NCBI RefSeq assembly: GCF_003334385.1
Contig: NZ_QOWN01000012.1
Reading direction: 5' to 3' (one strand)
Length of the DNA stretch: 64,000 bases
From: Escherichia coli
GTDB lineage: Bacteria; Pseudomonadota; Gammaproteobacteria; Enterobacterales; Enterobacteriaceae
Shown: piece by piece, positions 3,583 to 4,005 of the stretch
How the letters are laid out: every line of letters starts with the position of its first letter
Position numbering within the stretch: position 1 is the first letter of the stretch
The notes under the pieces: model-generated
The model's database searches: none
What the model was told of the DNA's origin: nothing
The model's input: the letters and a program-made list of their open reading frames with translations, nothing else
Made by a program: the position numbers and the translations under genes

Positions 3583-3664
3583 GATGCCCTCCAATATGGT
3601 TATTTTTTATTGTGAATTAAGATAGGTGAGTACGACGTAAAAAGATGTGAAGCAAATCACATCA

Positions 3665-3680
3665 GTGTAATCGCTTACAC
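3665..3680. promoter_or_regulatory. candidate GalR/GalS operator (perfect 16-bp palindrome GTGTAATCGCTTACAC) upstream of galP
   Basis: Palindrome read directly in the galP 5' region, about 85 bp upstream of the galP start; matches the GTGnAAnCGnTTnCAC operator form. Confidence 0.4.
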
Positions 3681-3846
3681 TAACATTTATCTTAGTTATG
3701 ATTTAAGTGCATGAAAATAATTGAGTTATATCATCATAGATTAAACGCTGTTATCTGCAATTAAGACTTTACTGAAAAGAAATGTAACAACTGTGAAAAC
3801 CGAATAATAATATGAAAATATTACAAATCTTTGTCTGTTGTGGTTG

Positions 3847-3862
3847 GTGTAATCGGTTTCAG
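3847..3862. promoter_or_regulatory. second candidate GalR/GalS-type operator half-conserved (GTGTAATCGGTTTCAG)
   Basis: Same left half-site as the 3665 palindrome, degenerate right half; about 265 bp upstream of galP. Confidence 0.25.
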
Positions 3863-3928
3863 TTGTGATGATAATCTGCGGTGAAACGTGATCAGGAAGA
3901 ATGATGTTATTGTGCGGGCGGTTTTTTT

Positions 3929-3954
3929 GCCGGATGCGGCGTGAACGCCTATCC
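3929..3954. repeat. single REP (repetitive extragenic palindromic) unit
   Basis: gccggatgcggcgtgaacgcctatcc matches the REP core seen in three other clusters in this window. Confidence 0.5.
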
Positions 3955-3983
3955 AAAAGAAAAAGGCCAGCGCGAGGCTGGCC
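3951..3983 (-). terminator. intrinsic terminator downstream of metK
   Basis: 7-bp GC stem ggccagc/gctggcc with 5-nt loop; on the minus strand it is followed by a U-rich tract (tttttctttt); lies just 3' of the metK stop. Confidence 0.5.
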
Positions 3984-4005
3984 TTTGAACGCAGGTGAAG
4001 AAAGA

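Follow-up and report, generated by a model that had tools for sequence, protein, structure and literature searches.

The spacer between metK and galP in the window (the whole stretch of DNA analysed, 64 kb) very probably represents the promoter/operator region of E. coli K-12 galP, a judgement that applies jointly to the identity of the region and to the full multi-step regulatory model described below. The galP operators, the dependence on CRP and the co-repression by NagC are textbook and database knowledge for E. coli, and everything in the finding as an earlier sequence-only reading of this DNA had worded it is already known. The main use of the result is therefore that of a positive control, the earlier reader having recognised a real regulatory site from the sequence alone. 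Only two items are potentially new, namely a strong constraint on the length of DNA between the two operators and an unassigned conserved block at nt 3761-3788.

Locus and genome coordinates

The alignment of window nt 3560-4010 with E. coli K-12 MG1655 fell on the metK-galP intergenic region and showed 100% identity and no differences; coordinates were converted as MG1655 = 3091866 minus the window coordinate. Both genes lie on the minus strand, so that upstream of galP corresponds to higher window coordinates; the spacer itself spans nt 3583-4005. The region was matched in all of the complete E. coli genomes searched (5,426/5,426), with at least 80% of its length matched in 5,423. Identity to the region was at least 99% in about 1,500 of these 5,426 genomes and 90-95% in about 3,400. 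The features assigned are listed in Table 1. The Shine-Dalgarno sequence of galP was read from the sequence, and each of its columns was kept in 59-64 of the 64 species aligned.

Table 1. Features of the metK-galP region in window coordinates (a dot marks sites listed without strand)
Feature	Position	Strand	Remarks
galP CDS	2188-3582	-	galactose:H+ symporter, 464 aa; ATG 3582-3580; ORF list; MG1655 b2943, 3088284-3089678
Shine-Dalgarno sequence of galP	3587-3592	-	GGAGGG
NagC operator	3599-3621	-	CTTAATTCACAATAAAAAATAAC; overlaps -10 hexamer and start site
Transcription start (inferred, +/-1)	3611-3612	-	7 nt downstream of -10 hexamer
-10 hexamer	3619-3624	-	TATCTT; inferred from position relative to CRP site, 22 bp downstream of CRP core
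CRP site	3646-3661	.	TGTGAAGCAAATCACA; centre 3653.5 (about -41.5/-42.5), class II position
Proximal GalR/GalS operator	3665-3680	.	GTGTAATCGCTTACAC; centre 3672.5 (about -60.5/-61.5); published operator (PMC5110547)
Conserved block	3761-3788	-	GTTACA-N5-TTTCAG-N5-TCTKAA (galP sense strand); phylogenetic footprint
Distal GalR/GalS operator	3847-3862	.	GTGTAATCGGTTTCAG; centre 3854.5 (about -242.5/-243.5); published operator (PMC5110547)
REP unit	3929-3955	+	GCCGGATGCGGCGTGAACGCCTATCC; core 3929-3950; 3' of metK
metK intrinsic terminator	3952-3986	-	10-bp GC-rich stem 3986-3962, then U-run TTTTTCTTTT; terminator scan
metK CDS	4006-5160	-	stop codon 4006-4008; ORF list; MG1655 b2942, 3086706-3087860

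The upstream third of the spacer belongs to the 3' end of metK and consists of an intrinsic terminator and, after it, a REP unit, both of which had been placed in this spacer by the sequence-only reading and were recovered here. The terminator, a stem-loop (nt 3962-3986) with a T-run, had a folding energy of -17 kcal/mol (z = -2.8) and was located 20 nt after the metK stop codon. The REP unit folds into a hairpin of -11.6 kcal/mol, and its core recurred four more times in the window with at most 3 mismatches, giving five copies in all versus none expected by chance. Within E. coli, the REP region (nt 3929-3961) was polymorphic, the number of REP units differing between alleles: K-12 is without 13 bp of the common E. 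coli allele in the REP region downstream of metK, and strain 2013C-4282 possesses two REP units (a BIME-like pair) versus one in K-12. Most of the sequence variation of the spacer in E. coli lay upstream of the distal operator.

GalR/GalS operators

The proximal operator matched the hyphenated-dyad consensus GTGNAANCGNTTNCAC with no mismatch in the 12 specified positions and was identical to the published galP operator, in agreement with its earlier assignment to the Gal repressor/isorepressor operator type. It was not the perfect 16-bp palindrome that it had been taken for: its reverse complement is GTGTAAGCGATTACAC, only 14 of the 16 positions being self-complementary, and the symmetry is broken at positions 7 and 10, both of which are N in the GalR consensus. 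In Escherichia whittamii and in two further Escherichia lineages, the proximal position is occupied by a truly perfect palindrome, GTGTAATCGATTACAC. The second site had been described as half-conserved and lying about 180 bp further upstream. The spacing held, the distance between the two operators being 182 bp from centre to centre in the window, whereas "half-conserved" undersells the distal operator, since it has one mismatch in the 12 specified positions.

In the available excerpt of Qian et al. 2016 (PMC5110547), the galP operators are given as GTGTAATCGCTTACAC at 3088186-3088201 (information score 25.1, the highest among the scores in the excerpt) and CTGAAACCGATTACAC at 3088004-3088019 (information score 14.8), and both coincided exactly with the window sites after coordinate conversion. 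The published support in that excerpt includes 3C and ChIP-chip evidence, the GalR ChIP-chip ratio at galP (115.4) being the highest in its table. The same paper states that mutations at operator positions 3, 5, 9 and 15 inactivate operators; both galP operators carry G3, A5, G9 and A15 in either orientation. Binding energies have been measured for both galP operators, the proximal one being the strongest (highest-affinity) and the distal one the weakest of four GalR sites tested (PMC9189660).

A symmetrised weight matrix was built from seven operators of galE, galR, galS and mglB, with the galP sites left out. Scored with it, both sites that had been suggested as Gal operators ranked first and second in the window, with 20.2 bits of a possible 21.5 for the proximal and about 16 bits for the distal operator, and the next best of the approximately 64,000 window positions reached 13.6 bits. 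In simulated 64-kb sequences, a mean of 0.2 positions scored as high as or higher than the distal operator. Weaker matches of 13.3-13.6 bits were observed at nt 50614-50629, 44257-44272 and 19887-19902; the candidate site at nt 50614 (ATGCAAGTGCTTTCAC) is the ygfZ-region site in the list of predicted GalR operators of Qian et al.

Within E. coli, the distal operator formed an invariant island between polymorphic flanks. A natural disruption was observed in one strain among the 15 matches listed in a search of 5,426 genomes: in E. coli PEC240 (NZ_CM168014.1; locus L006, 1783-2576), an IS1-family element lies within the distal operator (GTGTAATCGGTTT / IS / ATCGGTTTCAG), with an 8-bp target duplication.

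CRP site, promoter and NagC operator

The CRP site was unique in the 64-kb window as a TGTGA-N6-TCACA without mismatch. It adjoins the proximal operator on the promoter-proximal side, with a gap of 3 bp; between the two operators, where the earlier reading had proposed to look for a CRP site, none was present. In the -10 hexamer, of the form TAnnnT, the T, the A and the final T were present in 63, 63 and 64 of the 64 aligned species, respectively. With the start site inferred from this hexamer, the operators are centred at about -60.5 and -242.5, within 1 bp of the positions -61.5 and -243.5 given for them in PMC9189660. A promoter scan detected no sigma-70 -35/-10 pair on the galP strand, the expected outcome at a CRP-dependent promoter of class II. 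The perfect CRP core near -41.5, the conserved -10 hexamer and the lack of a -35/-10 pair are those of a promoter of this class, the start site to which the core is referred being an inferred one. Two sigma-70 promoter matches on the plus strand were not conserved and were rejected. All gal regulon promoters except that of galR are CRP-controlled (PMC4073488), and both cAMP and galactose alter the activity of the galP promoter, with GalS shaping the response (PMC2516365).

NagC operators have been described as 23-bp quasi-palindromes with TT at -6/-5, AA at +5/+6 and C or G at +/-11 (PMC4288165). Among three TT-N9-AA candidates in the region, the sequence at nt 3621-3599, CTTAATTCACAATAAAAAATAAC, had all three of these features, with C at both +/-11 positions, and was identical to the published galP NagC operator, cttaattcacaataaaaaataac (FITBAR paper, PMC3098098). 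The candidate at nt 3720-3698 was poorly conserved and was rejected. NagC represses galP about 5-fold, acting through this one site (PMC4288165, PMC5401889). The TT positions of the NagC operator (nt 3616/3615) were not conserved outside Escherichia, and thus the NagC layer of control may be lineage-specific.

Conservation of the operator arrangement

A search of genomes representing their species for an operator followed after 4 nt by a CRP core gave 114 loci. Of these, 67 preceded a galP orthologue by about 100 bp, with metK further upstream. These 67 loci came from the Enterobacteriaceae and relatives and included the genera Escherichia, Salmonella, Citrobacter, Enterobacter, Lelliottia, Kosakonia, Cedecea, Buttiauxella, Siccibacter, Trabulsiella, Atlantibacter, Sodalis, Biostraticola and others. 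Since the species are related and the module of proximal operator and CRP site was the search key, the galP loci are neither independent nor, for the proximal site, unbiased; the distal operator was outside the search pattern. An upstream distal operator (at least 12 bits) was found in all 64 of the galP loci with enough upstream DNA. Nine of its positions were invariant in 64/64 loci, and all four of the consensus bases at positions 3, 5, 9 and 15 were kept in 58/64.

The centre-to-centre distance between the two operators was 181-184 bp in 55 of the 64 loci (182 bp in 32, 183 bp in 13, 181 bp in 5 and 184 bp in 5), while the other distances were 174 bp (3 loci), 203 bp (3 loci), and 172, 168 and 157 bp (1 locus each). 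Outside Escherichia the spacer shared only 34-59% identity with that of K-12, and the segment from the metK stop codon to the distal operator varied from 58 to 954 bp (about 16-fold). Since the sequence has diverged and the neighbouring segment varies in length to this extent, the inter-operator length is specifically and strongly constrained, which supports a physical coupling of both operators across the Enterobacteriaceae. As to helical phase, 182 bp corresponds to 17.3 turns at 10.5 bp per turn, a non-integer value; relative to it, the spacing of 203 bp is longer by exactly two helical turns and that of 172 bp shorter by about one. The phase is not kept in the 174-, 168- and 157-bp variants, so that the helical-phase evidence is suggestive only.

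Typical enterobacterial metK-galP loci were also observed in contigs labelled Chryseobacterium sp. 18061 (L092), Martelella alba (L054) and the MAG "Proteobacteria bacterium" (L042), with MetK 88-97% and GalP 77-94% identical to the E. coli proteins. These assemblies are probably mislabelled or contaminated.

A conserved block between the operators

Near the midpoint between the operators, a block with the pattern given in Table 1 stood out from unconserved flanks, its columns being conserved in 56-63 of 64 species. The pattern was found in 50 galP loci. In 48 of the 50, the proximal operator began 107-110 bp after the block start, and in 47 of these 48 on-position loci the block start followed that of the distal operator by 73-76 bp; the Pluralibacter locus, with its operator spacing of 168 bp, had the block start 61 bp after the distal operator start. 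In the other 2 of the 50 loci the match was out of position, 25 bp past the distal operator. These fixed distances to both operators suggest a single assembled complex.

The block can be read as a direct repeat of two right half-sites of GalR type, TTACAT and TTTCAG; being 10 bp apart, the two would face the same side of the helix. As a full GalR operator the block was rejected, the central CG being absent and the best 16-mers scoring -0.7 to 9.4 bits. A NagC site (TT-N9-AA centred at nt 3775) was likewise rejected, as its positions were not conserved and +/-11 were T/T. Compared by eye with consensus sequences, the block did not fit IHF, Fis, CpxR, Cra, CytR or GntR sites, nor did it fit a further CRP site or, on either of the two strands, a sigma-70 promoter. 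No description of the block was found in the accessible literature, although El Qaidi et al. 2009 may cover it. The block may be an undescribed protein-binding element that, together with both operators, could form a galP-specific repressosome, serving either as a third GalR/GalS contact or as a site for an architectural protein; this is considered improbable. In the gal operon an architectural role is played by HU, and the galP block could be the corresponding architectural-protein site.

Proposed regulation and alternative explanations

In the regulatory model, galP is transcribed from TATCTT, a weak -10 hexamer that lacks any recognisable -35 partner, with a start at about nt 3611-3612 on the minus strand, and transcription depends on cAMP-CRP bound at the perfect core at about -41.5 in the class II manner. 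The proximal operator, a very strong one centred at about -60.5 and separated by only 3 bp from the CRP site downstream of it, is bound by a GalR or GalS dimer. From there, by analogy with gal P1, the repressor is inferred to block productive contacts of RNA polymerase (alpha C-terminal domain) with CRP and the upstream DNA, and thereby open complex formation. With somewhat better than even confidence, the weaker distal operator would raise the occupancy of the proximal one through repressor-repressor contact across a 182-bp loop. Such looping between the galP operators is plausible, with the conserved spacing as indirect support, and no published demonstration of a loop at galP was found in the accessible literature. 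NagC, with an operator that overlaps both the -10 hexamer and the start site, would add steric repression when bound. D-galactose releases GalR and GalS, and GlcNAc-6-phosphate releases NagC. Up-regulation of galP in a galR deletion strain is reported in PMC5110547. However, titrated GalR and GalS caused an apparent activation, not repression, of a native galP promoter reporter (PMC9189660), and simple repression may therefore not be the whole story.

That both sites merely resemble the GalR consensus by chance in an AT-rich spacer, with no regulatory role, is extremely improbable. Short degenerate consensus patterns do arise by chance, and with up to 3 mismatches the stricter pattern GTGTAANCGNTTACAC gave six window matches versus about two expected. 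The two sites, however, had 0 (proximal) and 2 (distal) mismatches to this pattern and held the two highest matrix ranks; moreover, the published binding data, in which both are ChIP-bound operators (PMC5110547), and their retention across the Enterobacteriaceae in a spacer otherwise as diverged as described above already refute this explanation. It is also very unlikely that the main role of the inverted repeats is one in RNA, with the CRP palindrome and the TTTTT following it serving, for instance, as a second terminator for metK read-through instead of as a protein binding site. The terminator scan did flag nt 3663-3644 on the minus strand as terminator-like, with a fold of -9.3 kcal/mol (z = -6). 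Against this, the stem has only seven pairs, three of them G-C, and lies upstream of the galP start site; the conserved positions are exactly the CRP half-sites TGTGA/TCACA, with a variable spacer; and a search of nt 3400-4200 against Rfam gave no real match to any family, only a meaningless 19.8 bits versus a gathering score of 229. The terminator-like fold at nt 3644-3663 is probably a by-product of the symmetry of the CRP site.

More weight is due to the explanation that both sites bind GalR/GalS while the distal one acts independently, with no loop, as a local reservoir of repressor, a long-range "chromosome anchoring" GalR site or a roadblock to metK read-through, though this too is considered unlikely. 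It would agree with the distal operator being the weakest of the four sites tested (PMC9189660), with its location just downstream of the metK terminator and the REP unit, and with a spacing that is non-integral in helical turns and out of phase in some species. Qian et al. (PMC5110547) suggest that many GalR sites have an architectural function, and they report long-range contacts that involve the galP operators. On the other hand, a roadblock or a reservoir needs no fixed distance, and the constancy of the distance to the proximal operator (181-184 bp in 55/64 species), while that to metK varies about 16-fold, thus counts against independent action, as does the position of the conserved block at fixed distances from both operators.

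Comparison with known systems

According to PMC5110547, galETKM of E. coli has OE at -60.5, CRP at -41.5 and OI at +53.5, and is repressed by a GalR-HU repressosome. galP resembles gal in its repressors, GalR and GalS, in the 16-bp operator consensus and in having two operators per promoter, and it resembles gal P1 in that the upstream operator and the CRP site are at identical positions relative to the start. They differ in that both galP operators are upstream and 182 bp apart, whereas the gal operators are 114 bp apart and flank the promoters; in that galP has one promoter and gal two overlapping ones; and in that galP has a further repressor, NagC, with its site at the transcription start. 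In a loop of the GalR repressosome type, tetramerisation of GalR bridges two operators, with a dependence on helical phase and an architectural protein at the apex.

The combination of a strong promoter-proximal site and a weaker distant auxiliary site is shared with the regulation of nagE-nagB by NagC and with O1-O3 looping in lac. Unlike nagE-nagB, galP has a single NagC site (PMC4288165, PMC5401889), and cooperation at galP, if any, would link GalR dimers or different proteins rather than NagC molecules.

An arrangement of operator then CRP site with a 3-bp gap, as in galP, is also found at mglBAC (GalS/GalR and CRP) in Pasteurellaceae, although this operon encodes an ABC transporter, unlike galP, and its operator half-sites differ (TGTAATCGTTTTCAT). 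An operator with a perfect CRP core 3 bp later, such as ATGTAATCGTTTTCAT-TTA-TGTGAGTTTGATCACA, was observed at loci L007, L008 and L012 and at about 45 other Pasteurellaceae loci, the genera being Haemophilus, Aggregatibacter, Rodentibacter and Pasteurella. In L012, the one Pasteurellaceae locus checked, the operator-CRP module was located upstream of mglB-mglA.
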